Of a DNA stretch of 64,000 nucleotides, positions 12,284 through 64,000 are shown piece after piece (the stretch's first letter is position 1; the number at the start of each line of letters is the position of its first letter). The notes below the pieces were generated by a model. It worked only from the letters and a program-made list of their open reading frames with translations. It did not search any database and had not been told where the DNA came from. Source of the stretch: Haplodiscus bocki (lineage: Eukaryota); contig OZ296656.1 of assembly GCA_965655095.1 (NCBI GenBank), positions 71,796,001 to 71,860,000 of the forward strand. Direction: 5' to 3'. The position numbers and the translations under genes are program-made.

Positions 12284-12318
12284 AAGAATCTCCTAGCAAT
12301 TCTGACCTCCGCCATAAT

Positions 12319-13356
12319 ATGCCGAACATCATGAGTCATAACCACAATACGAGATTGACTTCGACCAAGTACCCTTGTGGTGCATGCGCAGGTGAATGTA
12401 AAGACGGCTCGGTAGCATGTATTCTGTGCAATTCATGGTACCACGCAGGTAACTGCTCAGGATTACCATCAAGCATCTTGATGGCCATGTCAAAAACCTC
12501 GGGACTGGTGTGGCTGTGCAAATCTTGCGAAACGAAGGGTAAGGAACGGTTGTTGAAAGACGAGAAGGAAATTGACGCTAAGGTGCAGGAAACGATTGTT
12601 GCAAAGGTCATGGAAGACAAACTCGATGAGATTAGAGACACCAAAACGAAGCTGATTAAAGATAAACTGTCACTTTTCCAACAAAACCTTGAAGCTAAAC
12701 TTGAAAACTTACTTTCAGAAGACCGAAAAAGCGCACAGAGCTGGTCCGAAGTTACCCAACGGAATGCTCCCTTGGTGAAAGGTTTGGGAACCATCATGAA
12801 AGAGACGATTGAGAACGAAAGACTGGAACAAGCAGATCAAGAAAAACGGGAAAAAAACGTCATCCTTCATCGAGTACATGAGAGTGACAAATCGGAGGCC
12901 AGTGCGAGAGCTGGAGATGACATCAAGTTTTTCAAACAGCTCACCGAAGACGTACTAGGTATTGGTGACCTCAAACCAACAAAAGCAATCAGACTTGGAG
13001 CAAAGAAAACATCAAAGGACAGCGACGGTACTACTGCAGAACGAGTGAGTTCAAGACCACTGAAGATTGTATTGCCTTCCAAGGAGGATCGGGACTTACT
13101 TTTCAGAAATTTGAGAAAGTTGAGAGCAGCAGACAAATCATTCGCTTCAATCAGCGTTTCATACGACCTCTCGCAAGATCTGAGGAAGCAGCTCAAGTTG
13201 AAAATTGAAGAGGCCAAAAACAAAGATGGAGAGAATGCAAAAAACTACATGTACAGAATGAGAGGACCTCCGAACAGACTAGAGGTACAGAAACTGAAGC
13301 GGAAAGTGAAACTGTCAGCGGAGAGCCTAGACGATGCCTTCGTCGTCAATCCCTGA
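12319..13356 (+). CDS. LINE ORF1p: PHD finger, coiled coil, RRM-like region
   Basis: CGAC..CILCNSWYHAGNC..WLCKSC, REKNVILHRVHES, IRLG, RPLKI, SYDL. Confidence 0.88.
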   Translation: MPNIMSHNHNTRLTSTKYPCGACAGECKDGSVACILCNSWYHAGNCSGLPSSILMAMSKTSGLVWLCKSCETKGKERLLKDEKEIDAKVQETIVAKVMEDKLDEIRDTKTKLIKDKLSLFQQNLEAKLENLLSEDRKSAQSWSEVTQRNAPLVKGLGTIMKETIENERLEQADQEKREKNVILHRVHESDKSEASARAGDDIKFFKQLTEDVLGIGDLKPTKAIRLGAKKTSKDSDGTTAERVSSRPLKIVLPSKEDRDLLFRNLRKLRAADKSFASISVSYDLSQDLRKQLKLKIEEAKNKDGENAKNYMYRMRGPPNRLEVQKLKRKVKLSAESLDDAFVVNP

Positions 13357-16203
13357 AGTTTCTTTTTTCCAATACTGATGCGATGACAAACAAAAAGGAG
13401 GAAATCAGTGCAAGGCTAGTAAGTGAGAAGCCGGATGTTTTCGGCCTGATGGAAATAAAACCAAAAAAGCATGGCTTTGTGTTGGAGGAAGCAGATATCG
13501 CTTTTGAAGGATATGACGCATTCTACAGCAAACAAATTAGCAACAAGGAACATCGAGGTACAATAGTATACGTTAGGCAGGATATTGGGCTTCAGTCTAG
13601 TCGAGTTGAGATCAACGGATGCCCAGAAGACACTATTCTTGTTCAACTTTGTAATGGAAAAAAAGAAAAAATCTTGTTCGGGTGCGTCTATCGTCACTGG
13701 AATTCAGATACCCAAGAGCAACAGGCCTTAATGAACACTCTTAGAGCTGTATCACACATGAATTTCACGCACGAAGTTATCGTAGGAGATTTCAACTTCC
13801 CGAAAATTGATTGGTCCTTGAACTGGACACCGCTTAGTGAGAACAGTAACGAGCACTCATTCACTGAATTGGTAAGGGACTGCTTCTGGCACCAACACGT
13901 CCAATTTGCAACAAGAGGCAGAGGATCTGATGACCCTAGCATTCTTGATCTTGTCTTCACGGATGCAGATACAGAGATCGACGACATGGAGTGCCAAGCT
14001 CCTTTTGGAAAGAGTGACCATTCGGTGATTTCTTTCGAACTCTCCCAGGTGGAAAGAACACGCTGCAAAAAAGGAACAAGATGGAAGTATGCTAAGGGAG
14101 ACTACGAAAGCATGCGCGAGGTACTGTCAAACAACCACTGGGTTGATGTACTCTCTACTGCCCCAAGTGTCAACGAAGCATGGAATCTTGTAAAAGAAAG
14201 AATCAGCGCAGCAGTAGAAAAGTTTGTGCCAAAAGCCATTTCCGGATCCACAAAACAGTTTTCGGTTCCCTTGGATAAAGACCTCTTACAACAAATCCGA
14301 AAGAAGAACAGCCTCTGGAGAAAATACCTCAGAGTCAAAACAAAAACAGCTTACAACGAGTTCTGCAGAGCGAGAAATTACATCCGGAGTCGAACAAGGT
14401 CCAAAGCTAGAGAAATTGAAGATGAAATTGCCCGGGAAGCAAAACGAAACCCGAAGAGATTTTGGACCTTTGTGAACTCAAAAGTTAAAGCCAGAACTGG
14501 CATAAGTGACCTCGTCTTGGAAGACGGAGAGGTAGTATCCTCAGACACCAGAAAGGCTGAAGTCTTGAATACCTACTTCAGCAGTGTTTTTGTAGAAGAG
14601 AAAACCCCTCCCCCGGAAATTGACGAATTTGTTGTCGACTCATACATTGAGGAGCCCCTCATAACTGAATCAGCCATCAGAAAGAAGTTGGCAGAATTAA
14701 ACAGGACAAAGTCACCGGGCTTTGACGAAATCCATCCTCATGTGCTTGCCGAACTGTCAGAAGTTTTGACTGAACCACTGCAGATCATTTTTTCAAGCAC
14801 CATTGCTGAAAGCGAGCTACCCGAGGACTGGAAGGAGGCGAGGGTGACAGCACTCTTCAAGAAAGGTGACAAAAAGAAAGTGGAGAACTATCGACCGGTC
14901 AGCCTAACATGCATCGCATGTAAAGTACTAGAAAGCATTATCAGAGATGATATCATTTCCCACATGACGTCGAACAACTTGATTTCAGATAGACAATATG
15001 GCTCCGTGAAAGGAAGATCGACGAGTCTACAATTGCTGAAAGTCTTAGAAGAGTGGACACAGATTCTTGATAGAGGAGGAGGCATTGACTGCGTTTATTG
15101 TGACTTCCAAAATGCCTTCGATAAGGTTCCATATAGGAGACTGATGGCAAAGATCTGGTCATACGGAATTCGAGGAAAGTTATACCGATGGATAGAAACT
15201 CTCCTAACAAACAGGAAGCAACATGTGGCTGTCAACGGTCAAAAATCTAGTCTTGAGTGGAGTCCCGCAAGGAAGCGTTCTAGGGCCACTTCTTTTTGTG
15301 ATCTTCATAAACGACCTACCTGCAGCTGTTGAGAATGAAGTATGGATGTTCGCAGATGATACAAAGATCTACCAAGAGGTGAACTGTAAGGAAGATGGTG
15401 AATCGCTTCAAAATGACCTCTACAGGCTTGAAGATTGGAGCAAAAAATGGCTACTGCCGTTTCATCCAAAAAAGGCAAAGCTCCTAAAGTTTGGAAGAGC
15501 CAAGAAGCTTGAACGAGAGTACTACGCCGAGCGAGGGAAACTACTATCGATCTCAAGCGATAATACTGAGACGGACTTAGGAGTGACATTTGACTCAGAC
15601 CTGAAATTCGAAAAACACATTGTGAATAAAGTCAATAAAGCCAATCGATTGGTTGGCCTCATCAAACGGACCTTTCAATTGGATATTTTGAAGTTCAGGT
15701 TCCTCTTCCGAGGCATTGTTAGACCGCACCTAGAGTACGCCACTTCTGTATGGAACCCCACGTCAGTCAAACTCCAAAACCTCATCGAGAATGTGCAAAG
15801 AAGGGCTTCAAAACGTGTACATGAGTTAAAAGACCTATCTTACGAAGAGAGACTGAAAAAACTTGACATGCCAACCTTAGCATATAGACGCTTGAGAGGA
15901 GATATGATTGAAGTCTTCAAAATGCTTACCAACAACTCTGGGTACGATCAATCTGTGACGACAAATCTGCTGACCCGTGAGGGGCACAATAGGAGCAGAG
16001 GCCACGCATTGAAGCTGAAAATGAATAAAAGTCGAACTAGCCTTAGGAAGCATTTCTTCACACAGAGGGTGGTGAAAGAGTGGAACAACCTCCCTAGAGA
16101 GGTTATCGAATCCGTTAACACCACTACATTCAAATCAAGGCTGGACAAATGCTGGGAGAATAGAAAATTCATGTTGAGACCAACTCAGATGACGTTGCAG
16201 TGA
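13350..16203 (+). pseudogene. LINE ORF2p (AP endonuclease + reverse transcriptase), one frameshift near 15255
   Basis: LFSNTDAMTNK, VGDFNFP, SDH, KSPGFDEI, NYRPVSLT, DFQNAFDKV, GVPQGSVLGP, FADD, WNNLP. ORF-track pieces 13383-15332 and 15223-16203. Confidence 0.93.
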
Positions 16204-44205: not shown

Positions 44206-44998
44206 ATTTCGTATAAGTTGAATTTGAATTTTTATTATATGGAATACGGTATTTTTGGCACTGTGCGACATTTTTTGGATTTTTTTTGATTTTTTGGGCA
44301 CCTGCGCCCGCCCGGGATAATTATTCCGCCGCCGGATAGCTTTTACGCCGCCGCGGGATAATTTTTCCGCCGCCGGATAATTTTCCCCCTAGTAGTATAG
44401 TGTGAGCAGAAGTGGGGGGGGGGGGGGGGAAGACGATGTCTACCGGCAATGTATTAAGGTAGTGTTTTTCATAGTGTATCAGGATATGGAATGGTCTGGC
44501 AATTTATTAGGACATGGAATAGGGTATTTTCGGTACTGTGCGACAACTTTCGGCACTATGCGACAATTTTCGGCAATGTGAGACTTTTTCGAGAGAAGAA
44601 TTTTGAGCTTTTTTCCAGTGCCACCGCGCAGATAATTTTTACGGCGCGGACTAATTATGACACCTGCGCGTATTCATACCGTCTGCAGCTACTGCTGTGA
44701 CTTGATTCTATGTGAAAAGATACTGTGGTAAAGTTTTGAGATAGGGTTTAGTTCTGTACTGTATCAAAATAAGGTATAGTTCTGTAACGTATTAGGATAG
44801 GGTATAGTTCGGTAATATGCTCAGATAGGGTTTAGTTTCGCAATGTATGAAGATAAGATATAGCTCGGTGACGCCTGGGGAACGGTAATTCACGGGAAAC
44901 TCTGAAACAAACGTAAAGTTTGTAGCAACTTCACTTTAGCAACGCAAAAGGAAAAATGACGAAAAATCTGTAGCATGTGTTGTCTATTACAGTAAACT
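44206..44998. repeat. Repeat block F upstream of the 5' LTR (copy F' at 59496-60554)
   Basis: Co-linear with 59496-60554 apart from a ~265-bp deletion. Contains ~21-bp ggataatttttccgccgcc repeats, a G-run and ~30-bp caatgtattaagatag repeats. Confidence 0.9.
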
Positions 44999-46779
44999 TG
45001 TCGCAGGCTGCCGCCTGTGACGGCATGGTCTACTCCGTTAATTACAATGGACAAAACGAGGACACACGGGGACATACTCTGCCCCTATTTGAAGATCAAA
45101 CTTATTAAACCCTCGTTAAAGAACTCGCTGGATAAAAATTCCCCCCCATTTTGAAGATATATATTTATATATTTATATGCTATTAAATATACTTATATGA
45201 TCCTACCTATATTTACGTTTTTTTGTGCAAAATCCATACAATTAGCAAAGAAGCTTGTATCATGAGAGAAAGGTTATGAACAAATGCTTATAGCGCTCAA
45301 TTCATTTGAACTCCTATACTTAAATTTGATTGGTCAAGGCAAGTATTCGTATCAAATCTTGACCAAACAACAGCGCGGCTGGAGTGTAGTCAAAATTGTT
45401 CACCAGGACCTATTTTTGATCACTTTGCTCAAAGCGAGTGGTCGCTTTTAAACAAAAGGCGAACTACGGCCAAATGAAATCAGAAGGGGCGAAGTATGAC
45501 CATATTCAAGTAAAAGACGTTGCTATGTACTTATATAAGCATATAATTATTTGATTATGTTATATTATATCACCTAGTGCTAAATATTATTAAATCCCGA
45601 GTGAAAATCATTACCTGGTCAAAAGACGGTCACAGTGTCCATGTTTGACCACTATATTTTAGCTCAAAGCTAACACCTGTGCATGAAATTCAATATCAAT
45701 ATCCTTGTCATATCTACTACATTATAACCATAAATGACCACCCATGATAGGAATTACGCATGCAAACATGATTTTATTAACTTTGAACATTTATCCAGAT
45801 TCCATAACCATATTTTTGTTAGTCATGATTTTTCGGTATTTTCCTTTGAAGCTTGTTTTGTTACTATCCTTAAATTGATGTCACGATGATGATATGTAAG
45901 ACTCGGGTTAAGCTCTTTGATGTGTTGATTAAAATTAGAATGACGATCATGACGTCAGTAGATAGAGCCACCCAATTGGTCGACGAATGTCAGGTCAAAC
46001 GAAGGAAAGGGTGATCCACTACTAACAAAACCAACACCAGAGAAAAAAATTGCCATCCTGAAAAACAGTTCATTGCAGCAATTATTCAAACTGATAGGGA
46101 TTAATCGTGGATTATTTAAATCCCCAGCAAGCATTGTTTTGTAAAATTATCATTGAGTTCTTACGTTGCTGTTAATTGTATAATCTCAGGAACAGTTCAG
46201 TTATTAAAACAAACATGGTTTCCACTCGCAAGAGAAAGCAGTCAAACAAAAGGCTCCTCAGCCAATTAAATGACTTTGATCAAGACATGATCATTGGCAA
46301 TGCCGCTAGTGAAAGACAAGAAAATACTGTAGTCAATGAAGGTACTAATGACCGGGATTTTACTGTTGGTACTTCTAATGATAGTTCGATCGTTAATGGA
46401 AATGCAATGAGTGTGAAAACTTTGGAAAGGTGTTTTAATGGAAGGATCGACAGAGAAATGAGCAATTTTGTTGATACGGTTGAAGATAGGATACAGAATG
46501 CAATTTTGACCGCTATTGAAAATATAGTTGCTCCTAAAATTGAACTAGCAATCAGGTCAATAAATGCATCTTCTGGACGGTATGCGACCAGTGTGTCTGC
46601 AAATTCAGAACGTAGGGAACACGTTGGGATTAGTACCTCTTTTGAAAACGCATCTGGAAACAACGATACATTAGGTGTATTAAATGTAAATGATGAGACT
46701 CGACAAAACATTCCGGACGAGGTAAGTGAATTGTTGGTCTCAGAAACACGTTTTTACTGGCAACCACACACTCATCACA
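44999..46779 (+). repeat. 5' LTR (1781 bp) of the Gypsy element
   Basis: TGTCGCAG...CATCACA, immediately followed by a TGG-starting primer-binding site. Direct repeat of 60555-62337. Confidence 0.88.
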
Positions 46780-47927
46780 TGGTGACAGGACAAGCAGCCC
46801 AAACAAATCAATTCCCAGAGTTTATTACAGGACGTATTTTAACACCACGCAACCCACCATCACATCAACATCAGAACCTGTCAACACAAGTATCACAAGA
46901 CAACAATTTACCAGTGGTCGAACAAACTTCAAGAAATCAAAACTCAGACGCAAGCAATTCCATTAACCACCTAGTTGATGCAATTGCTGGAATTGCAGCC
47001 CAACAACCACCACCAGCAGCCACAATGCTCAAACCCGTATCCACAAATACACTAATTTTGGATGGCAAAAATGAGAAATTCGAACTCTATGAAGACCTAT
47101 TTCACACAATGCTCAAAATGCAACCGGAAATGACAGAAGCTATGAAAATTAACCATTTTCACGCCCATTTACGAAAAGAAGCACTTCAAACATTCAGAAA
47201 CATAAGTGCATTAAACAGGAAAACTCTCGATGACGTCCTAATTGTATTTCGACGCAAATATGTTAAACCAGAATCTCAAGCTACAGCTAAACACAAATGG
47301 CACAAACTCACATTCGATCTCAACACGAAATCACTTCCCGATTTCTTAGAAGAACTCAACGAATGTGCCGAAAGAACGTTCGGTGACAACGCCCAACACA
47401 TGATTGACAGTCTACTCTACGCGAAATTGCCACCTCATTTGAAACGATCACTCAACTTAGTCTATCTGGAAAATGGCACATACGACCAAATAGTCGCACA
47501 TCTCGAAAAAGAATCAGAACTGAGTGGTTTAGAAAACGATGGGGAGCTGACAATACCCACAATGCCAGCCGTACCCCCAAATGATAATCAACAAAACACT
47601 GAACAAACAAAAGTAATATGCCACTATTGTAAAAAGCCAGGCCACGTAATCTGAGAGTGCCGCAAAAGGATGAGAAAGGAACAAGAACAAAGAAATGATC
47701 CTCCAAATCAAAACATATAACCTTCGACATCCAAAAGATTTCCACCTTGTCTTCATTGTCAACGGACAAACCACCCTCCAGAAAACAGTTGGAGCGGTCC
47801 CAACGCAGCGAATAGACCCAAGCGGTTTAAACAAGAATATCACCCAGAAAATTGAAATGACGGGCAAGAACAACGAAACTTGACCCATTCAGGACCTTCA
47901 TCAATTCTTAAAAACTCTTCAAACTAA
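46215..47927 (+). pseudogene. gag: gag (starts inside the LTR; two CCHC knuckles; premature stops at 47652, 47718, 47853)
   Basis: Single frame 46215-47927. DGKNEKFELYEDLF..LRKEALQTF capsid-like region. CHYCKKPGHVI*EC and CLHCQRTNH knuckles. Confidence 0.85.
46780..46790 (+). promoter_or_regulatory. Primer-binding site TGGTGACAG(GA), tRNA-Leu-type by resemblance
   Basis: Abuts the LTR CA end, where identity with the downstream LTR copy stops. The tRNA assignment is inference. Confidence 0.7.
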
Positions 47928-50900
47928 AAAAGCCACGACTCCAATGGGCAGATTACACATCAGTGAGACAATACGTTATATCTGACCCACCCACCATAGT
48001 ATACCACTCTCATCAAACGTCGAACACAGGAATTCCATCAGTAGTCTGGCAGCAGCAAATGGAAAAAGCCTACATTCGAAGATATAATAATATGCACATA
48101 ATCCATAAAAACTTCCCAACATACGAATACGACTACACAGACAACTTTGACACTCAATTTAGACCCCTTCCAGAAGTCGTTGCATACGACGCATATTTCG
48201 TTGACTCTCAATATGGATTTGACCCCTATTGGGATGAAGAAATATACGACCAAGACAAATTGGAGTACAAGGATACTTACAACAAACCTAACAACCAAGT
48301 TGAAAGTGATGACTTAATTACGGATGCACACGTATCAGACGCACTACGATATGCATTGATAGATTTGTGGACAGTAAACCCACATTTACCTGATACTTCA
48401 ACATTACCAAACTTTCCGCCTAGACCACAAAATCAACAAAGGCAAACAGCAGTCATTGACGACCAAATTTTACCACAGCTCCAGGTAACACCAGACGGTT
48501 TCACGAGGTTTCTCCCGCTTTCAACAAATTTGCCATTAGAGAATAAGCGAAAAATGCTTTACTTTCCAATGGCTTTCGGGGAGTTAAATATTGACGGGCC
48601 CATAGATACGGGTGCTTTGTCAAGCGCCATTCCGGAAGCCGACTTACGCAAAATCGCAAAATCCGATTACTGGCTCCACACACAATTTTAAATGAAGGCC
48701 CACCACTTGAGTTCCAAATTAAGGTTGCCAATGGACAGTTAGAAGCACCTATTGCAACAGTAGAATTGCAATTCGAAGTCGGTGACGTTACATTCAGAGA
48801 AAAGTTCATAGTCATGACAAATCTCACAAGCCCTTTGATCGGTCTTTCATTCCTACAACGCAACAGTACCATACTCGATATGCGTCAAGGAGTCCTGAAC
48901 TTTCCCTTCTTTTCATCGAAATTGAAAAATGAAGACCGGACATACCCAAATGTCATTGAACCTATACTAGACCCAGTAGAAACCACACTACAGCCGGGAA
49001 AAAGAACCACAATTTGGGTAAAGTCACAGATCTATACAGATAACGAATCGACAGGAATAATTCAACCCTCGCCACTTCTAGAGAACGACGAAGACCTTCT
49101 CATCTGTCTAGCTCTTTCATCAATCCAAAATTACAAACATATGGTCCAAATTAGCATTTTTCTAGACCACCCTTACAACCTAAAGAAAGGAACGCACATT
49201 GCGAATTTCTCAATATTAACTTCTGAACAAACAAAACACATTCGACCAGTCAACCCTACCTCAGTGAGGCACCTTCTGAACAACAGTCATGACGACGCTA
49301 TTCATTACATAAACAGCCTTCTGAAGACATCGAAAACTGACGAAGTCAATGAGACCTACTGGTTCCCAACACCACAATATTCGGGCAATGAAAAGGAACA
49401 CACGCCCATTCAATCACGTATTCTCAATGAATTACGGGAACTAGAAAAATTAGAAAAATTAAATGCATTAGAAAATACCAGCTCTCGAAACCAATTTCTA
49501 TCCAATTTCGATTGGACAAGTTCTACTTTACAACCGGAAGCCAAACAAGCCGTTGAAAATCTACTTGTGGATTTTCACGACATTTTTGCGCGGCACCGAT
49601 TTGACATCGGAATCAATACAGACTTCAAAGTACAACTCACACCGTTAGACAACAGGCCTGCTTATAGTCAAAGCTTTCATGCGCCGATCAACCTCAAGGA
49701 CAACACCCTCCTGGAACTAGCCCTATTACACAAGTATGGAATCATAACAACACTACCCTTCAGCAAATATGCTAGTCCAATTTTCGCACAAAGGAAACCA
49801 AATGGAAAGCAACGCCTTTTGGTTGACCTCCGCAAAATTAATACACTTATTGCAGATGATTACATCAACAACAATCATCCGGTCAGCACACTAACGGATG
49901 CAGCACAGCATATGGCTGGGAAAAACTTGTTCTGCAAACTCGATTATTCCCAGGCATATCACTGCCTTCAGATGGCTGACCAGCAATCAATCGAACTCCT
50001 TGCATTCAACTTTGCAAGTAGAACATTCGCGTACCGAAGATTGGCACAAGGACTTAGCCGTTCCCTATCGGCATTCTCGAGCTTCATACTTCAATACCTC
50101 GATCCAGTCATCAAAGCCGACCAGTGCGCACAATACGTCGACGATATTGGCATAGCCGCCAATACCCCGGAACAATTGATCAAAAATCTACAAGCAGTTT
50201 TCCAGTGTCTACGGAAAGCTGGTCTCAAACTCAGCATGGCCAAATGCCATTTTGGAGTACAAGAAGTAGATTTTCTTTGGACGAACAATAACAACCAATG
50301 GGGTTGCCCCTCAAAAACAAGAGATTGCCAAATTCCTCGAAAAAGTCAAATTTCCACGATCCAAAAAAGCACTTCAACGATATATTGGCTTTTTGAATTA
50401 TTACGGAAATTACATACCCAGACTGGCAGAACGACTCACACCGTTCTTCCAACTACTCAAAACAACTGACGCCAAAACCAAAATTCCGATTGCCCCTGAT
50501 ATCATGAAAGACTTCAGGGAAATAAACGAAGCTCTAGACCGATGTTGCCAGCTGGCATTACGTCAACCATTACCTGGTAAACAACTGGTCTTCATGACTG
50601 ATGCAAGCTTTCAGGCAGCTGGTTATGCAGTCTTAATAGAAGATGATCCCAACCAGAAGTACACCTCAACACGCAAAACTTACGCTCCCATAGCTTATGG
50701 CTCAAAAACATTCTCACCATCCCAAATTAAAATGTCTATTTACGCAAAAGAAGTTTTAGCCATTTAGATGGCATTCAAAGACTTTGGACATAAATTTTGG
50801 GGAGCCACCAAACCAGTGATTATCATGACAGATAGCAAATCGGTCACCAGATTCTTCCAAACAAAAATGATTCCTCCACCTCTACGGAAGCCCTGTGATT

Positions 50901-53113
50901 TTGCACTACAATTTAATTTTACTATTGCACACAATCCAGGAAAAATGAACACTGCAGCAGATTTCTTATCTCGATTAGAAATGGACCCTTATGAAAAAAA
51001 TAATCTTAAAAATTACAGAAGACTATCCAACACAACCGATTAAAGTGAACATCGAATCCACAGGCATTGCACAAGAAGAAACGGTCTTTTTCGATCCTAC
51101 AGACCAACAAGAAACCACAGAAAAAGACCTCTGGAAGCGTGAAGACGAAGCCCGAAACGCCATACCTAACGATCCACCAGTCATCACAGTGTCGTGTTAC
51201 TACGCAAATGACCTACACAAAGACACATCAATTGTGAATATAGCACAATTGACGAAACCATCACGTATACTCATCGAACAAGATTCAGATCTAACACTAC
51301 TCAATTTCAAACGCGAAATGTTGGGATTACCAATTGACGAACAAATTTTATTAAAAGATGCATGTTACTTGCATTATTCTAGAAACAAAAAGCGTATTAT
51401 CATCAAAGATGACATCCTCTATCGACAGTACTATAACGACATTGGTGAAATCAGTCACTTGCAGGTCCTTTTGCCCGGACAATTACTCAAAGTGTTATTA
51501 CAATCATTACATGGAACAGCTGGCAAACACCCAGGCATTTCAAAAATGATGCAAGAAATCCGTCAAAAGTAATACTTTCCTTCAATTGCAACTTACGTTA
51601 GAAACTGGATTCGTGACTGCGAAATATGCATTCAAGATAAACACATAAACCACACACGAATCACTCCGGATTGAATCTACATCCCGAAATGGGATCTTGG
51701 ACCGGAAGACCTCATGCAAATCGACTTATTGCCAGAATTACCGCCAAGTGGGGGTTATGAGAATATCAGAACGGCAATTGGTGTATTTTCGAGATACGCA
51801 TTTGCCTACCCAGTTTCCAACCCCACGACAGTTAACACAGCGAGAGTCATAATAGACATCATGACAGGACACGCCTACTTGCCTACACTCATTATAACAG
51901 ACAAAGGAAGCGTTTTCGTCTCCCAAGTTATACACGAGGTAGCCGAAATATTGGGCATAAATTTAAAACATGCCACAACAAAACATGCACAAACTATTGA
52001 GGTCCTAGAACGGGCCCACGCCACAATCAAGACTTCCTTGAAAATGGCATCAGGCGAAGACAGGAAACAATGGCACAAATATTTACACATTGCAATCCTG
52101 AATTACAACACGACATACCATTCCAGTATCGATTGTGAACCAAGCCGAGTATTCCATGGCCCAGTCCCACACAACATCTTAGATCACAAACTTAGCTTAC
52201 GTTTTAATCCTAATATCGCACCAACTACAGATTTTGCAGAAGAATTACTCCGCAGAACCAAAATCTTATATGACAAAACCAAGAAAAACGTCATGCAGTC
52301 ATATATCAAATACAAGAAGTATTACGACAAAAAAGCAAAAGCTTCACCTTCAAAAGAAAAAGATTACTGCTTCATACTTCAGCCAAAAGCGGACCACCAA
52401 GGGTCAAAAATACCGTTCCGTGACTTTCGTTGGATTGGACCCTATTTATTGGAAAAAGTTTTTTTGAACAATAAATACAGTGTGCGGAAACTTAATACAA
52501 ACAAAACTCAAATCCTACACAGAATCCGCCTCCGAAAATACAACCCTGAAAAACCTCCTCAAGACAAGTATCAGGAAATTCAATGGCAGGTTGACGATAA
52601 TATCGTTGTCCCACAAGATGATCTATATACAATTGCATGGGAAGCGGAATTTGGTGGACACCTATTTGATGTTCCTATCATATATACCGACCCTAATGCA
52701 ATTGATTTTGATGATAGTCATACACAGGGACCAGATACTGTTATTGTCCCACGTTCCTATTTTCATGATTCAAACAACGGTCAAAACAGGGAAACATGCC
52801 CCATTTCTGACCCATCTGTACCACAAACTCCAAAGCCTAAATTGAATGGTCAAAGTCAGGACATTGAAACCACTAGCAACCTAACTCAAAATGATAATGC
52901 CGAACACATAAATGAGTCAATCATCGATGCTGAAGTTACATGTAAACCTGTCACACAGCCACCATCAACGCACAGTTACACTTCTTTAACGCTTGACAGC
53001 AACAACCCTACAGCTGAAAATATTCCCAAAAGGAATCTAATCACTCTAGAGGAGGCAAATACAACCTACGCCGCAATCACAATCCTCATTACTCAGAAAT
53101 ATACAGATATTGA
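47918..53113 (+). pseudogene. pol: pol in the -1 frame: spacer, aspartic protease, dUTPase-like segment, RT, RNase H, integrase; several frameshifts and stops
   Basis: IDTGA, YASPIF..RLLVDLRKIN, KLDYSQAYH, QYVDD, TDAS, H..H..CEIC, QIDL/TDKGS/ERAH. Ends GGKYNLR..YRY*. T TCA AAC before the gag stop resembles a mutated T TTA AAC slippery site. Confidence 0.93.
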
Positions 53114-53315
53114 TGTGTGTAAAACTTTATTCTAGCCCCCTTTGTGTGGCATTTCTATTCTTTAATTCTATCTTTTGCACACACATCATTTAAAGCTTTT
53201 CTTTTTCTTTTTGGGGTATACACAAATTACCAATGACATCAAAAAAGCGGAAGTTACTCAACAAAGCAACAGAAGACTAATTAATAAAGCATAGTACAAC
53301 AACTTTAATTAAAAC

Positions 53316-54583
53316 TCAAGACGACTCTGCATTAGAAGTTTTGCGCTTTGATCGCAACTTCTCAGCAAGCAACTCAGCAACACCACTATGATGAGTTTTA
53401 CTAATATCAATACGTGGACGCTGTGCAGGACGACGACGTTGCTCGGGTAACCTTTCCGACACAAATACTGGCTCACTCAAAGATGAAGAAGACTCTACAT
53501 CACTCGCAACTCGTACAGCTTTATACGACTTCTCCAACTCAGCCCGAATCTTCTCGTACCCATGAACATTGACCGATTCCCAAGGATTGTAATCACATTG
53601 AAGCGCACTATCACTAAAGGTCTCCAGTAACTCCATACAAGACGAAATAGACCCAGGATCAGTGAAGAAGTTTCCTTCAGCACCACTGCTCAGCGGAAAT
53701 CCCTGAATTGGCTCTATGACTGACGACAGGCGAACCTTGGTCACTCCAACCTTGCTCGACCGAAGAGAGACATCAGGCAATTTAGGGGCAACATGGCCCA
53801 AACAAAGACAACACAATTTGAATAAATCGCAAGTATACTCTCTACGTGACATTTCGGGGCATGTTGACAGAAAAGAAACCATGTCCTCAACGTCAGGCCC
53901 AACACTTAACTCGTCAAAATAAACATGCCTCACATCGTCTTTGAATTCTACGTAATCGTCAATGTGGACGTTTCGCAACTCTCGTGCAACCCAACCCCGT
54001 GAACTGAAACTCTGGAACAAGAGCTGGTAACAATCAACAGCAACAGACTTTGGCAATTTGAACTGTACTGCATAGTCGAAGCAAGCTAAACCAATCACCA
54101 AGTCTGATTTGAACGTAGGGTATCTCATCAACTCCTTCGCTACATATTTGATATATTGTCTACCTTGGTCAATAAAGGGATCAAACGACTCTCCCATCAC
54201 CGTCTTCGCAATAGCATCAGATTTTCCCCTCTTTCCACGCTCACGTTCTACATCAATTTTTGATCTTGCAACCTTCAACACCTTTGCACGAAATTCCGTC
54301 TTCTGCATAAATTCAGGGATGCCCAAAAGCTCACTAACAGCAAAGTGAAAAGATCGCAACGCATCCCAATCCCATTCAGCAGGTAGACAACTCCGCGACA
54401 CGATCCTTCGCAGCAGACGATGGAAAAATCGCACATTTGGCCGCACAAGAAAAACCCTTGGTCACGACTGGGCACAGTTGACCGCTTGAAGGCTTCCCGA
54501 TAGTCTTGAACGATGACTTTGAACAGTTCCAGACGAGCTTCGAAGTAGGGATCCTCAGTAACTTGACTATCAAATGCTTGACC
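53316..54583 (-). CDS. Antisense accessory gene exon D (hAT C-terminal-like; 1-nt frameshift in a T-run near 54450)
   Basis: Acceptor ttgtag|GGT. DPYFEARLELFKVI joins the 376-aa ORF 53316-54446 (LFKLCCLCLGH). Confidence 0.7.
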
Positions 54584-54645
54584 CTACAATGCAAACCCAT
54601 CAACATTTGATTACTTACATGTAATTATACGCAAAATATACCCAC

Positions 54646-54780
54646 CCTTCCTTCCGCATGCTGAAACTCTTGATATTGACTGGTATTGCTGATGTATGTG
54701 ATAATTTGAGGCCAATGCGCGATCATTTCCTGAACCACAAGAAATGCAGTGGACAACTCTAACTTCCCATCCTCCACAGC
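54646..54780 (-). CDS. Antisense accessory gene exon C (45 codons; this frame is not in the ORF track)
   Basis: Acceptor tttgcag|GCT, donor AGG|GTGGGT. AVEDGKLELSTAFLVVQEMIAHWPQIITYI... Confidence 0.68.
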
Positions 54781-54853
54781 CTGCAAAACGCAAAAATATC
54801 ATTTAGCAGCTGTACTACTAGGGCAACCACAAGGAAGTATTACCAATACGTAC

Positions 54854-55339
54854 CATTCTGAAATACTGTGTCGACTGCACCCAGCGTTCATCAGGAAGTC
54901 CATTCAGACGCAGTAGAAGAGCACGCAGCATGAAACACACGTCAATTCTCCCCATTACGCTGAAGCTGGGTTTGTGTAGCAAACGCTCAAACTGCACAGG
55001 GGCCAACGCAAAAGGGTACTGAACACCCGCCATCTGACCAGGACTCTTATCGAAGACTTTCACAAAACCGGCATTTGACCCGCCACAACAGATAATTGTT
55101 GCGTCACCAGAAATGGCACTAAGCAATCGCGAAACCAGATCAATATAACTCTTTGTGGGTGGAACATCTCTTCCGCAATGCAACATGGGCATACACACGA
55201 AACGCTTGCCCTCCCAAAACCCAACACTCAATGCCCTGCGATGAGAACCCACAGATAACTCAATTGCATATGCCCCTTCACGAGCAATGACAGACGACAC
55301 ATGTTTCACTAGCTCCACGAACAGATGATGCAACAATCC
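54854..55339 (-). CDS. Antisense accessory gene exon B (hAT RNase-H-fold-like, catalytic Asp motifs degenerate)
   Basis: Acceptor tttcag|GGA, donor ATG|GTACGT, phase 0 at both ends. AYAIELSVG..LSVGFWEG and ISGDATIICCGGSNAGFV. Confidence 0.72.
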
Positions 55340-55535
55340 CTGAAACATCACAACTAACATAAAGCCAAAATACCCACCCACGAACTTACAACTTACTCCC
55401 ACATGTCAAATGCAAAACTTCCTGACCACTTCTGACACTACATATAATACTCACCCCGACATACTCGTGACCCATGGACAAACTACGGCACTATTACCCA
55501 TTTATGACCATAACAAAATATGCTCATATACTTAC

Positions 55536-57572
55536 CGAAATATAGCTCGAACTCCAATTGAAGTCAACAGTACTCGCAGAATGACCCGTCAACACTCCCA
55601 CCTGCGTCCAGTATTCTTGCAATGTCCACAATTGGCCTCCTCTTCTCAGAAAAATCAACAACAATTCAATTTGTATCAGAGTTCGTGAACTTGCCGTAGT
55701 AAAGGTAGACGGTTTTCCTTCAACAACATCGTAGAAGATGGGACGTTTATGATCCAATTCTGGCACATCCAAATGTATAAACAACTCCTTCTCAGCTTCC
55801 AACTTAGATCCATACAGAGTACGCCCATCTGATCCGCGTACTTTTGGAGGATGATACTGGGCACGAAACTTCTGATCTGCCCTCAAACGATGCTCCCGTT
55901 GGAAATGTCGCTTCAATTCATACATGCCCCGAGGTTTCATTGACACGTTTCTCCTACAATTCATGCAGTAAAAACAATGCCGATTTTTCAACGGATTTTC
56001 GGGTCCAGTAGCAAAGATTTTCGCAAAAGGGGCAATCTGCAACATCTGCTCAGTGAAAACATATCCACCGCCATCCGACCCACTAGGCGAAATTGGGTTA
56101 AGCCGACCTTCTTTTGACCACCTATACAACTCGCCCTCCTTCCGAGCATCGGAACGAATCTGTCCAAGAGTTTTCAAGCTGTCAGTATCATTAATCTCGG
56201 TCACTTCTGTTCGAGAGAAGCCCAAAGCCGCATCTGCATGCCGACTGGAACATGGTTGGTGCAAAAGATCACCCGCCAAACGATCACTATCAAACGACTC
56301 TACAATGGTCGGCAAAGAACAAAAAGAGCGTGAAGCCACACTCTCCATGATAGTGGACCCGGACCTACTGAGCGAAACAGACTTTCCACTTCCCTTCTCA
56401 CCAACATTCCTTTCAGTCTTTCTGCCGATTTTCAAAAGCACATCCTCCAACATTCCAAAAGTGGCCGAAGAAACTTCTAATCCGATTGCTCTAGCAAATT
56501 GTATCATTTGATCTGAACTCATTCCGGTCAATTGCTGATGGGGATCTAACTGTACTGGCGGATTATCGGCAAAACACACTTTCAACAGGGTTCTCGCAGA
56601 CTCGCTGGGGTAATACTTTGAACGCCCAGCACCCAAACCAGGCTGCACTGTACCTCCAGAAAAACCTGGAAGATCTGATTCTGCAGTTTCACACACCCTC
56701 CCTCCACTCAAATCGTCAACTCGCCTTTGTGCAATCGACTCCAACTCAGATGTACTATAATCTGTGTCATCCGGTCGGGAACTACTTGGGAATGACTGAC
56801 CAGCATCTGACACACCAACCAAAGTACATCTTTCAGTAAACAATCTACCACCTGCATCATCAATTTCAAATGCAACACTCTTCGAAGGTCGGTCATCTGC
56901 CACGCCAATATCCACATCACACAATGGCCGCTTGCTTCCACCACCAATAGTCTTTTCTCGCAACTCCGAACGTACAATGTCATCCACCCGACTCCTGGAA
57001 ATTTCGTCGTCAACAGTTACCACACCACTCCCTGTATTACCGCGATCCATTAAATTCGCATCCAACAATTCAAGCACTCCAGCAGGGTCAACTTCCACAA
57101 TATTCTCTATTCCTTCACCACCGGATGACTCAAGTTTATCACGCAAAAACTTCTCCAGCCCTTCACTTCCTTCATCACTACTCGACAATAGACACTCTTG
57201 ACTGCCAACATTTAAACACTCTTTATTCACATCCCCGCGTTCTTCAACCATCGCTTCTTTACCACCTGTCACTTGCAATACTGCCAGACTTTTAGTCGGA
57301 AAAATCTCTGTCTTTTCAATAACCACGATTTCAAGTTCGCTCCTCTCGGGAAGGCCTGGGTAGTTCTCAGTTTCTTCGGTGTTGTGGTCTTTTGGCACAT
57401 TGGATTCGTTCTCTAAACAATGGAAGCTAATAAAGTTACGTGGCAATTCGCCAGCATATTCGCCCTTTTCGAAACCAGATATCCGTGAAGAGGAAGCACG
57501 TGTTCGTTCAAACTTAAATCTATCACCTGTTATCTTACTAGTGAAGAGAGAAAACTTGCTCTGGCCAAGCAA
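55536..57572 (-). CDS. Antisense accessory gene exon A: acidic low-complexity N-terminus and BED-like zinc finger (true start uncertain)
   Basis: 679 open codons. FYCMNCRRNVSMKPRGMYELKRHFQREH. Phase-0 donor TCG|GTAAGT at 55536/55535. Confidence 0.75.
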
Positions 57573-58421: not shown

Positions 58422-59270
58422 ATGGCTGAAATGAACTCTCAATTTAGTTTTAATGAAGACCAGGAAATGGAGACACAACCCATTTACCTATCCAGTGATG
58501 AGAGTGAGATTGACTCACCTCCCCATCACCAATTCCACAGCTACCGAACAACGTCCCTGATACGTACAGTGCAATAACCCAATTAATAGCGGCACACCAC
58601 GAACAAATGTCATTGTCCGGCTCCTCTGCCCCACATTATCCAATCACCCCGCCAACCTCATTGATATCTGATCACGAAGATGATGACATGCTCACCCCGA
58701 TAACAGGCAACCCCGCCCAGTTCTTACCCTATACACCGAACCGCCACCATATCCCAATCCAGTTATGCCAACAAATAACACCCATCCCAGACACGCCAAA
58801 AACTCCGACGCCAGAAAATCGTGGGCTATCAGACCTCTTCCGTCCCTACAACACTCCCAACCAACTGTCAGCAAGTTTATTACACAACGCCCCCCCCCAT
58901 TATCACGACAGTCACTGATGGATTACAAAACTTGACATTGCACCCCCATGCGCAGCACAATGAATGGGTGACAGGGTGTTTGATATGCGGAAAATACTAT
59001 GACCAAGTAATAGAAGAAACTGTTGCCGACTATCTCAACCAGACAGCACATCCAGGTGAAACAGTACGGGAACGGCAAATCAAAAGAAACGCTTTCATTG
59101 ATGGCATTCAGAGCGCAATCTTCACTTTTATCCCCGCCGGGAGTGTCATGGCTGTCGCCTGTGACAACCTAGTTTACTCCGTTAGCCCTAATGGACAAAA
59201 CTCGGGAGGACAGGGATATGCTTTGCCCTCATTCCAAAATCAAAAACTGACAAAACTTTCATTTGAATAA
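58422..59270 (+). pseudogene. Sense accessory ORF X (~280 aa; Pro/Thr-rich, then CLIC and a helical domain), overlapping U3
   Basis: Three ORF-track pieces join through frameshifts in two C-runs (~58522, ~58895). The C-terminal peptide is conserved in the diverged LTR copies. Confidence 0.6.
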
Positions 59271-59495
59271 CCAGCTAGACAAAACTCCTCCCCCCTTTTT
59301 TAATAAAATTTGATACATATTTTTTTATTTGGATACTTATTTCATTACTGTGCAAAATCCATACAAATAGCGAACAAGCTTGTATCATGAGAAAACGGGT
59401 GAACAAATGCTTTTGGTGCTCAATTAATTTGCAGTCGTATACTTGTATTTGATTGGTCGAAACAAGTATTCTTGTCAAAATAACTAACACTTATA

Positions 59496-60554
59496 ATTTC
59501 GTATAAGTTGAATTTGAATTTTTATTATATGGAATAGGGTATTTTTGGCACTGAGCGACAATTTTTGGATTTTTTTTCAAATTTTTGAGCACCTGCGCCT
59601 GCCCGGGATAATTATTCCGCCGCCGGATAGTTTTTACGCCGCCGCAGGATAATTTTTCCGCCGCCGGATAATTTTCCCCCTAGTAGTATAGTGTGAGCAG
59701 AAGTGGGGGTGGGAAGACGAGGTCTCCTACGGGGGCTCGAACCTGCGCGGACGGAGTGGAAAAGTAAATCCGTTCGGCGGTCGTATCCGCGGCGCCACGG
59801 GAGCTATTAATCGGCGCGGACGGAGTGCTGGACGCCATAACTTCTTTGAGCTACGTAAAAAGATTGTGGTAAAGGTTTGAAAAGTTAACTAGAGAGTATA
59901 AAGTTGAACAAATACATTGTATAAATTGAAGGGATAGGGTATTAATGTATTAAGATAGCGTATAGTTTCGGCAATGTATTAAGATAGAGTATAGTTTCGG
60001 CAGTGTAATAAGATAGTGTTTTTCATAGTGTATTAGGATATGGAATGGTCTGGCAATGTATTAAGACATGGAATAGGGTATTTTTGGTACTGTGCGACAA
60101 CCTTCGGCACTATGCGACATTTTTCGGCAATGTGAGACTTTTTCGAGAGAAGAATTTTGAACTTTTTTCCAGTGCCACCGCGCAGATAATTATTACAGCG
60201 CGGACTAATTATGACACCTGCGGGTATTCATAACGTCTGCAGCTACTGCTGTGACCTAATTCTATGTGAAAAGATACTTTGGTAATGTTTTGAGATTGGG
60301 TTTAGTTCTGTAATGTATCAAGATAGGGTTTAGTTATGTAACGTATTAAGATAGGGTATAGTTCATTAATATGCTCAGATAGGGTTTTAGTTTCGCATTG
60401 TTTGAAGATAGGATATAGCTGGGTGTTTCTTGGGGAACAGTAGTTCAAAAGGAAACTCTCAAACAAACGTAAAGTTTGTAGCAACATCACTATAGCAACG
60501 CAAAAGGAAAAATGGCGAAAAATCTATAGCATGTGTTGTCTATTACAGTATACA
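59496..60554. repeat. Repeat block F' (longer copy of F)
   Basis: Co-linear with 44206-44998 plus an extra ~59725-59990. Confidence 0.9.
59721..59804 (-). other. tRNA-like (pseudo-tRNA or SINE-head) sequence in F'
   Basis: Minus strand GCTCCCGTGGCGCCGCGG...GCAGGTTCGAGCCC..GGAGACC has A- and B-box-like motifs. Acceptor and anticodon stems are imperfect. Confidence 0.45.
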
Positions 60555-62337
60555 TGTCGCAGGCTGCCGCCTGTGACGGCATGGTCTCCTCCGTTAATTA
60601 CAATGGACAAAACGAGGACACACGGGGACATACTCTGCCGCTATTTGAAAATCAAACTTATTGAACCCTCGTTAAAATAACTCGCTGGATAAAAATTCCC
60701 CCCCCCATTTTGAAGATATATATTTATATATTTATATGCTAATAAATTTACGTATATGATCCTACGTATATTTACGTATTTATGAGCAAAATCCATACAA
60801 ATAGCAAAGAACCTGTATCATGAGAGAAAGCTTATGAACAAATGCTTATAGCGCTCAATTCATTGGAAGTCCTATACCTAAATTTGATTGGTCAAGGCAA
60901 GTATTCGTATCAAAATTTGACCAAACAACAGCGCTGCTGGAGTGTAGTCAAAATTGGTCACCAGGACCTAATTTTGATCAATTTGCTCACAGCGAGTGGT
61001 CGCTTTTAAACAAAAGGCGAACTACGGCCAAATGAAGTCAGAAGTGCCGAAGTATGACCATATTCAATTAAAAGACGTTGCTATGTACTTATATGAGCAT
61101 ATAATTATTTGATTATGTTATATTATATCACCTAGTGCTAATTATTATTAAATCCCGAGTGAAAATCTTTACCTGGTTAAAAGACGGTCACAGTGCCCAC
61201 TTTTGACCACTATAATTTAGCTCTAAGTTAAAACCTGTGCATGAAGTTCAATATCAATATCCTTGTCATATCTACTATATTATAACCATAATTGACCACC
61301 CATGATATGAATTACGCATGCAATTATGATTTCATTAACCTTGAACTTTTATCCAGATTCCAATACCATATTTTTGTTAGTCATGATTTTTCGGTATTTT
61401 CCTTTGAAGCTTGTTTTGTTACTATCCTTAAAGTGATGTCACGATGATGATATGTAAGACTCCGGTTAAGCCCTTTGATGTGTTGATTAAAATTAGAATG
61501 ACGATCATGACGTCAGTAGATAGAGCCACCCAATTGGTCGACGAATGTCAGGTCAAACGAAGGAAAGGGTGATCCACTACTAACAAAACCAACACCAGAG
61601 AAAAAAATTGCCATCCTGAAAAACAGTTCATTGCAGCAATTATTCAAACTGATAGGGATTAATCGTGGATTATTTAAATCCCCAGCAAGCATTGTTTTGT
61701 AAAATTATCATTGAGTTCTTACGTTGCTGTTAATTGTATAATCTCAGGAACAGTTCAGTTATTAAAACAAACATGGTTTCCACTCGCAAGAGAAAGCAGT
61801 CAAACAAAAGGCTCCTCAGCCAATTAAATGACTTTGATCAAGACATGATCATTGGCAATGCCGCTAGTGAAAGACAAGAAAATACTGTAGTCAATGAAGG
61901 TACTAATGACCGGGATTTTACTGTTGGTACTTCTAATGATAGTTCGATCGTTAATGGAAATGCAATGAGTGTGAAAACTTTGGAAAGGTGTTTTAATGGA
62001 AGGATCGACAGAGAAATGAGCAATATTGTTGATACGGTTGAAGATAGGATACAGATTGCAATTTTGACCGCTATTGAAAATATAGTTGCTCCTAAAATTG
62101 AACGTGCAATCAGGTCATTAAATGCATCTTCTGGACGGGATGCGACCAGTGTGTCTGCAAATTCAGAACGTAGGGAACACGTTGGGATTAGTACCTCTTT
62201 TGAAAACGCATCTGGAAACAACGATGCATTAGGTGTATCAAATGTAAATGATGAGACTCGACAAAACATTCCGGACGAGGTAAGTGAATTGTCGGTCTCA
62301 GAAACACGTTTTGACCGGCAACCACACACTCATCACA
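60555..62337 (+). mobile_element. LTR copy (1783 bp), probably a solo LTR; its ORF 61773-62393 reads out into the flank
   Basis: TGTCGCAG...CATCACA flanked by ATACA (60550-60554) and ATACC (62338-62342). No PBS after it. Confidence 0.85.
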
Positions 62338-62699
62338 ATACCTTATATGGAAAGATCATAAAAAGAAAGACCAGCCATAAAAGCAAAGACTAACCATAAA
62401 AAGAAAAACTGCACGAGCTGTCAATCACTTTTTGTGACGCCTGCCGATACTGTTTTGACCTAATGCTACGTAAAAATATTGATTCGAATTTCGAAAAGGT
62501 TAGTTAGAGAGTACAAATGTTATCAAAAACATGGTATAACCTGCACATTTACAAGGACGCAGTCTGCAAAAAACATGACTTTTCACGCCTGTATTGTACG
62601 CGTGCAGGTACTCATTTACTATGTCAACACACGTTTGCAACGTATTTTCAATAGATTTTGTCAAAAAGTCTCTGTTTGAATGTTGTTTCTGATCCGTGC

Positions 62700-62900
62700 A
62701 ATGTATTGAGACACAAGCAAGGACATCTGACAATGTGAAAAGTTGGGTTTTTATTTCGCTCAATGTACAATGATGGAGTTTTATAGACAATGTTGTGTAC
62801 TGCAACATTTTACGTTCAATGAGAGCCGCATTTTTTGAACTAGAAAAAGCTATGTTTTCCGTTGCAACTGCTGTTCGCATGGTAACTATCATCACTCCTG
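62700..62900 (-). mobile_element. Possible highly decayed hAT dimerisation-domain remnant
   Basis: TMRTAVATENIAFSSSK..RKMLQ resembles TLPVTVATAERSFSKLK..RSTMLQ. Confidence 0.3.
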
Positions 62901-63589
62901 GTCCTTAGACTCACAGTAAGCAATCAGACATTTCCTGCTAAATGTAACATGAAAGCAATTTGTGAGAAAAAATGGATATGATAACCAAAAGTGGTTGTAT
63001 GAGTGTTACAGATCTCAATCATGCAGTCAGACATTTATGCCATGTAGTTGACGTTTTTTCTGAATTGCTGAAGGATTTTCATGACTATTGCCTCTTTAAC
63101 ATGTCTGACCAAATAGTCGTGGGAATTGTTTTTAGTTGTTTCTGGTTGATGAACTACAAAAACATAGTTTTGCGCTACAGCATGACCAGTAAGCAGTACT
63201 TTTGCGTCGGAGAGTTACTCAACTATTAAAAAATGGTTTGAACGCACAGCAATGATGACTGCACCACTGTAAGATACCACACAAAAATTTATGAAAGTTG
63301 ACAAAAGAACTGTGTTTTCAGACTTTCTTTGGGTTTGTCTATACTTGTCTATACCAATGATGGAGTTTAAGTACAAGCAAGCATACAAAATGATTGAAAC
63401 AGGAGTCCTACTTTGAAAATCAAAGAACATGAAATCATATCGATCAATTTTTTTTCTTTGGTAGCAAAATGCCTAAAGCTGAATGATGAATTCACGTGTC
63501 TTACGACTTCTCCTAATTTGAATGGCAAATAATGTTGGGACTATTTGCAGCAAGGTGACCAAAAATATTGCATTACCGAAATTTACCCC

Positions 63590-64000
63590 GTCTTAATACA
63601 TTGATGGGTAGTGTACGCTAACTTTTTACTTTGCTGAAGTACAGCCTGTTTCATTACATTGTTGAGCTTTACCCAACCTTTTTACAATGCTGAGCTATAC
63701 CCAATTCTTACAGATTGTTGAGGTATACCGTATCTTATTACATTGCTAAACAATTCTCAAAGACTAACACTTTGCTGAGCTATACCCAATCTTAACGCGT
63801 TGCTAAGATATAGCCTATCTTAATACATTGCTGAGCAATTCCCAATTTGAAAACATACTGAGCTATACTTAATCCTAGCATATTGTTGAGGTATACCCTA
63901 TTTCATTACATTGCCAAGCAATTCCCAAATACTAATACATTGCTGAGCTATACCCAATCCTAACACATTGTTAAGATATAGCCTGTTTTATCACATTGCT
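63590..64000 (+). repeat. Degenerate ~30-bp minisatellite
   Basis: Units like acattgctgagctatacccaatcttaat; reverse complement of the caatgtattaagataggtatag motif in F/F'. Confidence 0.85.

Follow-up and report, generated by a model that had tools for sequence, protein, structure and literature searches.

In long terminal repeat (LTR) retrotransposons, the boundary between the LTR and the primer-binding site (PBS) is usually taken as a fixed, non-coding landmark upstream of gag. An element in a 64,000-nucleotide stretch of the Haplodiscus bocki genome (GenBank assembly GCA_965655095.1, contig OZ296656.1, positions 71,796,001 to 71,860,000 of the forward strand; the whole stretch is called the window, and positions refer to it) raises the question of where gag begins when its reading frame runs upstream through this boundary. 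The element is a high-copy, env-less Ty3/gypsy retrotransposon whose pol, according to Pfam matches on the open reading frames (ORFs) of the window, follows the order protease (PR), reverse transcriptase (RT), RNase H (RH), and integrase (IN); full-length relatives measure ~15.9 kb. The best explanation as a whole, to which we assign a probability of roughly 0.8, is that gag starts inside the LTR, crosses the PBS, and contains a linker that gathers cassettes by which the LTR boundary is shifted. The boundary here lies in the middle of a gene under selection and occurs in several positions, with intermediates, in one genome. Because it has been caught in several positions, the evolution of an LTR boundary becomes directly testable. 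The features on which this explanation is built are the following.

44999–46779, plus strand: 5' LTR of 1781 bp, TG...CA, with ends common to 20+ loci and 5-bp target duplications in relatives.
46215–46779, plus strand: LTR-coded N-terminus of Gag, 188 codons plus 1 nt, with a basic tail, a long predicted helix at amino acids 57–119, and a disordered linker (from the ratio of nonsynonymous to synonymous substitution rates, dN/dS, ATG conservation, and a structural model).
46779–46790, plus strand: last LTR base and PBS, read M-V-T-G, with a second in-frame ATG at 46779–46781 (tRNA-Leu(CAA) match).
46791–47654, plus strand: rest of gag, comprising the linker, the capsid, and the start of the first zinc knuckle, with an early stop here and 570 amino acids in relatives (profile and structure matches).

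The family LTR start at 44999 coincides with the onset of similarity to 20+ other loci, and the LTR ends at 46779. At the homologous LTR ends of 20 relatives, a 5-bp target duplication was exact in 13 and had one mismatch in 2, while the other 5 could not be judged owing to N gaps, truncation, or the lack of a 3' LTR in range; the window copy is itself truncated at its 3' end. The PBS at 46780–46790 is complementary at 11 of 11 nucleotides to the 3' end plus CCA of the genome's own tRNA-Leu(CAA). The only genes found in an initial tRNA search were for Arg, Lys, and Thr, and none of them fits the PBS; the primer match is provided by tandem tRNA-Leu(CAA) genes with an 18-nt intron at loci L081–L082. 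At locus L110, the PBS that follows the LTR differs at two positions and might be primed by another tRNA-Leu.

The gag ATG at 46215 sits 565 nt before this LTR end, and its frame crosses the 11-nt PBS and continues for 479 amino acids to a stop ending at 47654. The capsid region is included, as the initial annotation had claimed in placing this ATG in frame with capsid; the region matches Retrotrans_gag at E 0.0018, below the Pfam cut-off, and PF00098 in some relatives. The same annotation had also read the last LTR base and the TG of the PBS as a second in-frame ATG, and this agrees with an LTR end that was set independently by the target duplications: the LTR ends in CATCACA, and its final A plus TG (46779–46781) reads H-H-M-V-T-G. 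The length of the LTR ORF is 3n+1 in 35 of 43 copies and at all shifted boundaries, so that it is in frame with capsid. Since none of 20,000 shuffles of 46215–46778 yielded 188 stop-free codons, a chance origin of the frame is excluded. The ATG was kept in all 43 copies of a first set and in 63 of 69 copies of a wider one, the remaining six having ACG; the wider set was drawn from 90 loci, of which 14 were set aside as solo LTRs or duplicates (L209, solely an overlap, being included among these by error) and 5 more for poor cover. Disruption of the frame in young intact copies had been named as the outcome that would speak against a coding LTR. Gag was uninterrupted from the LTR ATG in 12 of 13 elements with an LTR pair, the LTRs being 99–99.9% identical in young copies; this young set was chosen by protein search and is therefore biased toward intact frames. 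In an older set picked from DNA, 17 of 25 5' copies were open beyond the LTR end and 8 were broken within the LTR part.

The LTR-coded 188 codons are under purifying selection. Across 17 elements, dN/dS of the LTR-coded gag was 0.27 (interval 0.19–0.38), shifted frames gave 1.08 and 1.31, and pseudo-frames in the upstream LTR of the same elements gave 0.70–0.84; only codons at which both LTRs agree were counted, which strips most post-insertion decay. Raw 5' copies gave 0.37 for the LTR part and 0.27 for the capsid. Ten young copies of more distant lineages gave 0.22, with 0.11 over amino acids 61–130. Between lineages of both families described below, dN/dS was 0.13–0.27 at dS 0.18–0.44. The dN/dS of the LTR ORF, proposed at the outset as a check, thus shows purifying selection in the family of the window element (family 1; 0.22–0.27). 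Together with the in-frame cassettes described below, this selection indicates that the gag frame of the LTR matters.

A structural model of a natural 570-residue Gag was obtained from a 45-sequence alignment. The model contains a confident long helix at amino acids 57–119, with a predicted local distance difference test (pLDDT) score of 81–92 over amino acids 61–120, disorder at amino acids 122–246 (pLDDT <50), and a confident helical capsid domain at about amino acids 281–440, plus two Cys/His knuckles. The LTR end and the PBS consequently fall in a predicted disordered linker. In a Foldseek search, the top 10 rows were all capsids (PNMA2, dArc); the best was the PNMA2 capsid at E 0.0027 and probability 1.0, and none reached 0.001 or less. 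An earlier fold from a shallow alignment was uninformative (pLDDT 35), and ESM Atlas gave no usable match for Gag amino acids 1–190.

The layout is common to at least two families. Among database representatives, Gags of less than 50% identity carry an internal MVTG at amino acids 115–196, and one such diverged Gag represents a second large family in the same genome (family 2). In 11 of 14 pairs, its LTR ends at +388 from the ATG, the end being at +379 in a copy that has lost 9 nt; of those left uncounted, L223 repeats 42 nt further with a mismatched target duplication, and L199 and L227 are truncated or rearranged. The 129 LTR codons of family 2 gave a dN/dS of 0.13 (0.08–0.20). Its Gag aligns with that of family 1 solely from HMVTG onward, at 40% identity, and the LTR codons are unalignable. 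We infer that the LTR-coded part, with its basic tail and long helix, works as a family-specific N-terminal domain.

Many copies contain extra cassettes, each consisting of an LTR end and a PBS, after the first junction, and these are read as repeated HHMVTG. All 32 cassette units at 26 loci were multiples of 3 (33, 42, 72, 84, 114, 117, and 156 nt); the loci were picked by DNA pattern among 434 genome matches, with 30 fetched and 4 overlapping ones dropped. Frame-keeping cassettes are needed only if ribosomes arrive from upstream of the PBS. The LTR end itself also varies. Within family 1, it lies at +565 in 7 of 13 pairs and at +598 in 6, and in five of the latter the extra 33 nt begin with a decayed PBS. 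A similar 33-nt unit stands outside the LTR, with the first PBS intact, at L108, L006, and L013, which represent an intermediate state in which the cassette is still external. Four of 5 copies in a pol-less lineage have an LTR end 42 nt further on, and in one family 2 copy the end is at +418 and a relic PBS remains at +388; the 5' LTR of that copy is truncated, so that its ends are assigned without a target duplication. Arrays of LTR-end and PBS cassettes in frame, with lineages that end the LTR 30, 33, and 42 nt further on, constitute the new element of this layout. As a separate observation, the first (used) PBS in the cassette-bearing L087, L089, L158, and others often pairs with tRNA-Leu over 12–13 nt, and the last one over 11 nt.

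On these grounds, a long Gag is very probably made from the LTR ATG at 46215, as a single protein, and a boundary shift by cassettes is likely. The RNA is predicted to begin at or before TCAGTT at 46197, and the LTR-coded part of gag would lie in the repeat (R) and unique 5' (U5) regions. The LTR end and PBS would sit in a disordered linker in which M-V-T-G is tolerated. An unusually long strong-stop DNA, of ~580 nt, would then be needed for reverse transcription. The proposed shift would comprise three steps: a cassette of LTR end and PBS duplicates in frame, the upstream PBS decays, and priming moves to the next PBS, whereby U5 gains 10–14 codons. Repeated steps of this kind could explain part of the reach of the LTR into gag.

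Several observations weigh against this explanation or narrow it. The dN/dS intervals come from bootstrapping codons over pairs that are not independent of one another. For the antisense frame with the same third positions, dN/dS was 0.31, which we read as a shadow of the sense frame because the latter alone continues into capsid. The seven cassette lengths reduce to about three modules (33, 42, and 30 nt), and thus few independent events may lie behind the multiples of 3. We infer the direction of the shift, and the steps observed all start from the present LTR end, none being earlier; the LTR of L110 ends at +565, 42 nt short of the end in its sister copies, so that the boundary may move in either direction. 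The pol-less lineage, whose LTRs are 99.1–99.7% identical, has spread with ACG for the first ATG and a stop near codon 62 in five of six of its copies. This lineage may be mobilised in trans or may use a later start. The LTR ends have been verified in two families and are provisionally assigned in five others from the MVTG motif, and genome searches with those five other diverged Gags gave no close (high-identity) copy.

The young pol-less lineage is ~6.5 kb long (L102/L110/L111/L112/L100, L171, L180) and has a deletion in the unique 3' region (U3). Its gag is kept open from M65, upstream of the PBS, and the lineage may be a Gag-only parasite or a dominant-negative Gag donor.

The start of the RNA and the signals around it bear on how the LTR ATG would be reached. 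The relevant features are listed below.

46197–46202, plus strand: initiator-like TCAGTT, a candidate for the transcription start (or a splice acceptor), found in at least 63 of 69 copies.
46203–46208, plus strand: ATTAAA, alternative candidate poly(A) signal, in 58 of 69 copies, with AATAAA in 2 more.
46559–46564, plus strand: candidate poly(A) signal AATAAA within the ORF, unaltered in 52 of 69 copies.
46719–46727, plus strand: donor-like site GAG/GTAAGT in phase 0, with an exact match in 37 of 69 copies and probably not required.

Divergence drops from 0.24–0.28 to 0.05 at TCAGTT (46197–46202), a motif that we take to fit the initiator (Inr) element, and TCAGTC stands 34–40 nt upstream of the ATG in 11 of 11 family 2 loci. 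On this sequence evidence, an RNA start at TCAGTT 46197 is somewhat favored. The initial annotation had placed AATAAA (46559) and ATTAAA (62117) within the LTR ORF and suggested that the signal may mark the R/U5 border; both positions were confirmed. The two synonymous positions of AATAAA 46559 show mildly raised conservation, ranking in the top 13% and 24% of 86 such sites, and the signal has no counterpart in family 2. ATTAAA 46203 and AATAAA 46559 stand as equal candidates. Four sequence runs, contigs whose kind is not recorded, extended over the entire region and gave neither a start nor an end. No poly(A)-tailed copy behind AATAAA 46559 turned up in a pattern search, a negative that is no proof of absence. 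The R/U5 border was also sought in a linkage break that 25 copies showed near 46500; this candidate was rejected, since the set of 69 copies did not reproduce it. The layout also raises the question of what keeps a poly(A) signal located in or close to coding R/U5 silent in the 5' LTR.

A different account of the upstream region accepts Gag from 46215 and has the RNA start far upstream, with TTCAG at 46196–46200 as a cis- or trans-splice acceptor that removes an ATG-rich leader, and with a much longer R. The start of the conserved block coincides exactly with TTCAG, there are many conserved ATGs further upstream (45683–45987), and a conserved TATATA at 45532 is present in 38 of 43 copies; moreover, Cer1 has TTTCAG-like acceptors before its initiator ATG, according to the available part of PMC10309623. 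However, the upstream sequence of family 2 is A-rich and forms no pyrimidine tract. The bases after AG (T, then T or C) are also conserved in both families, which, set against the general consensus of both signals, suits TCAGTY better than an acceptor. We regard this account as unlikely. The initial annotation had further postulated that a short Gag is made from the LTR/PBS ATG at 46779 alongside the long one. The second ATG is found in 23 of 25 5' copies, and its best support is that the young pol-less lineage lost the first ATG while capsid is still open; in Ty1, p22 arises from an internal start. This p22 is a shorter Gag-derived restriction factor, according to reference titles in PMC4974528. 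Nevertheless, CA directly before TGG always spells ATG, and because the PBS itself closes one of the three frames, the odds that this ATG falls in frame were about even. Furthermore, 17 ATGs lie between 46215 and 46779, the context at 46779 is cacATGG versus aacATGG at 46215, frame-keeping cassettes are needless for a start at the PBS, and the ACG lineage has an open frame beginning already at M65, on the upstream side of the PBS. The claim of two isoforms was therefore not sustained, and we consider it improbable.

In another conceivable account, the LTR ORF would be an accessory gene of the U3 type, expressed from the 3' LTR, with Gag proper starting at the PBS ATG; in the sag/nef type, the ORF ends in the LTR and is independent of gag. 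The first ~95 codons do share their genealogy with U3 in 25 copies. This linkage break was not reproduced in 69 copies, though, and the ORF has no stop inside the LTR, is in frame with capsid (3n+1 in 35 of 43 copies), and is followed downstream of the LTR by cassettes of 3n, all of which make such a gene very improbable. A chance or neutral origin, by which a young repeat simply happens to have an open frame, would accord with the within-element comparison of 5' and 3' LTRs, where dN/dS is near neutral (0.72, 0.54–0.99, in 16 pairs, the discordant L013 being excluded), and with the 8 of 25 older 5' copies broken in the LTR part. Yet decay is expected after insertion, dN/dS between lineages is 0.13–0.27, and the shuffles gave 0 of 20,000; the selection results have already refuted this possibility, and we give it next to no weight. 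A single long Gag from the LTR ATG, with a cassette-bearing linker across the PBS, is thus the explanation that we retain.

Two further candidates were rejected for now. The donor-like site at 46719–46727 is not conserved beyond background, as its synonymous positions are conserved no better than the median and the site is absent in a 633-residue lineage and in family 2; it is hence not regarded as a required splice donor. A fusion of Gag to the 3' ORF, of the type known as CERV (see below), was likewise set aside because the donor is unconserved and selection on the 3' ORF begins at its own ATG.

The rest of the element, and a second LTR in the window, comprise the following features.

45001–45108, plus strand: first 36 codons of U3, the C-terminal end of the 3' sense ORF, which would be read from the 3' LTR copy (dN/dS 0.16, 0.06–0.35).
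47912–53135, plus strand: pol, PR-RT-RH-IN, broken by stops and frameshifts (Pfam).
53316–57572, minus strand: three antisense ORFs (381, 195, and 682 amino acids) common to relatives, without a Pfam match above the cut-off.
58422–59270, plus strand: 3' sense ORF with its own ATG (58422), running into U3 and broken in the window copy (dN/dS).
59139–59490, plus strand: short GGGAG purine tract and the start of a diverged, truncated 3' LTR (from 59144), ~74% identical to the best other copies.
60555–62337, plus strand: solo LTR in a host repeat, with flanks ATACA/ATACC and empty sites; its ORF (61773–62393) reaches 18 codons into the flank.

The LTR is coding at both ends, with the gag N-terminus at one and the tail of the 3' sense ORF at the other, which amounts to ~673 of its 1781 bases (~38%). 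The 3' ORF has a dN/dS of 0.12–0.27 from its ATG and 0.8–0.9 over the first 55 codons of the open frame upstream. Divergence between 5' and 3' LTRs in 16 elements was ~0.01–0.02 in the middle of the LTR and 0.05–0.09 at both ends, which suggests gene conversion between LTRs; LTR-based dating would be biased as a result.

Set against known systems, the layout is a PBS within gag, as in Ty1, at approximately ten times the scale, in a gypsy element and with the boundary in several positions. The overlap of LTR and gag covers 129–199 codons here, whereas it amounts to about a dozen codons in Ty1. Ty1 is also primed by tRNAiMet and has the copia order, with IN before RT, whereas the window element has a tRNA-Leu(CAA) site and the gypsy order. 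The two share a PBS inside the gag reading frame: the primer-binding nucleotides of Ty1 are 94–104 of the RNA, within the GAG ORF, in the available part of PMC4974528. For Ty1, we found no report of cassette arrays or a shifting LTR end, both of which are present here. With Ty3, the element shares the order PR-RT-RH-IN, and the best PDB match of the relative P0301 is Ty3 Gag-Pol (E 1.8e-43); however, the PBS segments of Ty3 adjoin the 5' untranslated region (UTR) and lie in the 3' UTR, as described in the accessible part of PMC4974528. Mag-lineage elements have a PBS for tRNA-Leu or tRNA-Ser, and the 5' UTR of some of them contains tandem repeats (PMC3286476, as far as available). A tRNA-Leu PBS is thus a trait in common, not diagnostic alone for membership of the Mag clade, and the Mag repeats, unlike the coding PBS cassettes, are described as 5' UTR.

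The 3' end likewise has partial parallels. In CRM-clade chromoviruses, an ORF extends past the polypurine tract into the 3' LTR (PMC3605345, in part); the 3' sense ORF here similarly enters the LTR, for 36 codons, although the CRM frame is the end of gag-pol, whereas the one described here is separate and has an ATG of its own, and the opposite LTR end is coding too. Cer1 of Caenorhabditis elegans makes a spliced, Gag-linked accessory protein, CERV, according to the part of PMC10309623 available. Cer1 likewise belongs to the gypsy elements and carries an additional non-env ORF ahead of its 3' LTR; the resemblance also extends to an N-terminal part, for which the same source describes a leucine-zipper motif and a nuclear localisation signal. 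However, CERV is a spliced fusion, whereas selection on the 3' ORF here runs from its own ATG and the donor-like site is unconserved; the 5' UTR of Cer1 is moreover placed outside the LTR in that source. An acoel genome paper reports abundant LTR elements, without structural detail in the part available (PMC9911081). Exact-phrase matching in open-access full text, a scope that leaves out repeat databases, supplements, and closed journals, found no description of a gag-in-LTR layout or of PBS cassette arrays.

For annotation, a gag that is taken to start after the PBS would miss one third of the protein, and solo LTRs would be annotated as spurious genes of 190–250 amino acids, as several database entries suggest. 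The frame was open to the LTR end in 12 of 17 older 3' or solo LTRs (one N-truncated copy left out) and in 12 of 12 mostly younger cognate 3' LTRs (two rows from unrelated neighboring LTRs left out), with products of 190–250 amino acids. The proposal that every solo LTR donates an open exon of ~190 amino acids accordingly stands as regards the often open frames and is overstated otherwise, since the donor-like site is no better conserved than background. The ORF at 61773 was said to run into flanking DNA, which it does, encoding 206 amino acids with a stop at 62393. A broader joint claim is tentative, and we would put it slightly below even odds: that in-frame duplication of the PBS, followed by decay, acted as a ratchet and carried the LTR end of a whole clade of giant gypsy elements hundreds of bases into gag; that the LTR thereby became a heritable protein-domain cassette (~38% coding, with a family-specific Gag N-terminus at one end and an accessory ORF tail at the other); and that thousands of solo LTRs, each with a promoter, a strong ATG, and ~190 open codons, are available to host genes.

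The LTR at 60555–62337 was considered as the cognate 3' LTR and rejected: no PBS follows it, no purine tract precedes it, and the empty sites of the host repeat (8 of 8 loci inspected, of 77 matches) identify it as a solo LTR. The element's own 3' LTR is the remnant from 59144 to ~59490. At 59125–59143 and in its homologs, family 1 has no ordinary polypurine tract, just a pyrimidine run with GGGAG behind it; in family 2, the purine run is normal. The pyrimidine run and GGGAG of family 1 could pair as a short hairpin. The solo LTR and the first LTR share ~800 bp of left flank, and both LTRs of the window stand at the same position of the host repeat (44391–44998, 59496–60554, 62338–64000). An inverted copy of the host repeat and solo LTR lies ~14 kb further on (L238–L239); as the repeat often occurs in inverted pairs 11–16 kb apart, the solo LTR was thereby copied into each arm of a long, foldback-like element. 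The host repeat was also considered as a Maverick end, and this was rejected because such ORFs were not found in the neighboring 14 kb.

Among the three antisense ORFs, which are kept in many relatives, one has a zinc-finger-like Cys/His stretch, and the antisense ORF part searched in ESM Atlas gave no match at 0.9 or above. Elsewhere in the window, 12268–16203 holds a long interspersed nuclear element whose ORF1 has a PHD finger and whose ORF2, of the endonuclease-RT type, is interrupted by a frameshift. Two direct-repeat pairs, 628–1632/5573–6579 (96%) and 20207–20679/21364–21831 (94%), may be the LTRs of small or non-autonomous elements.

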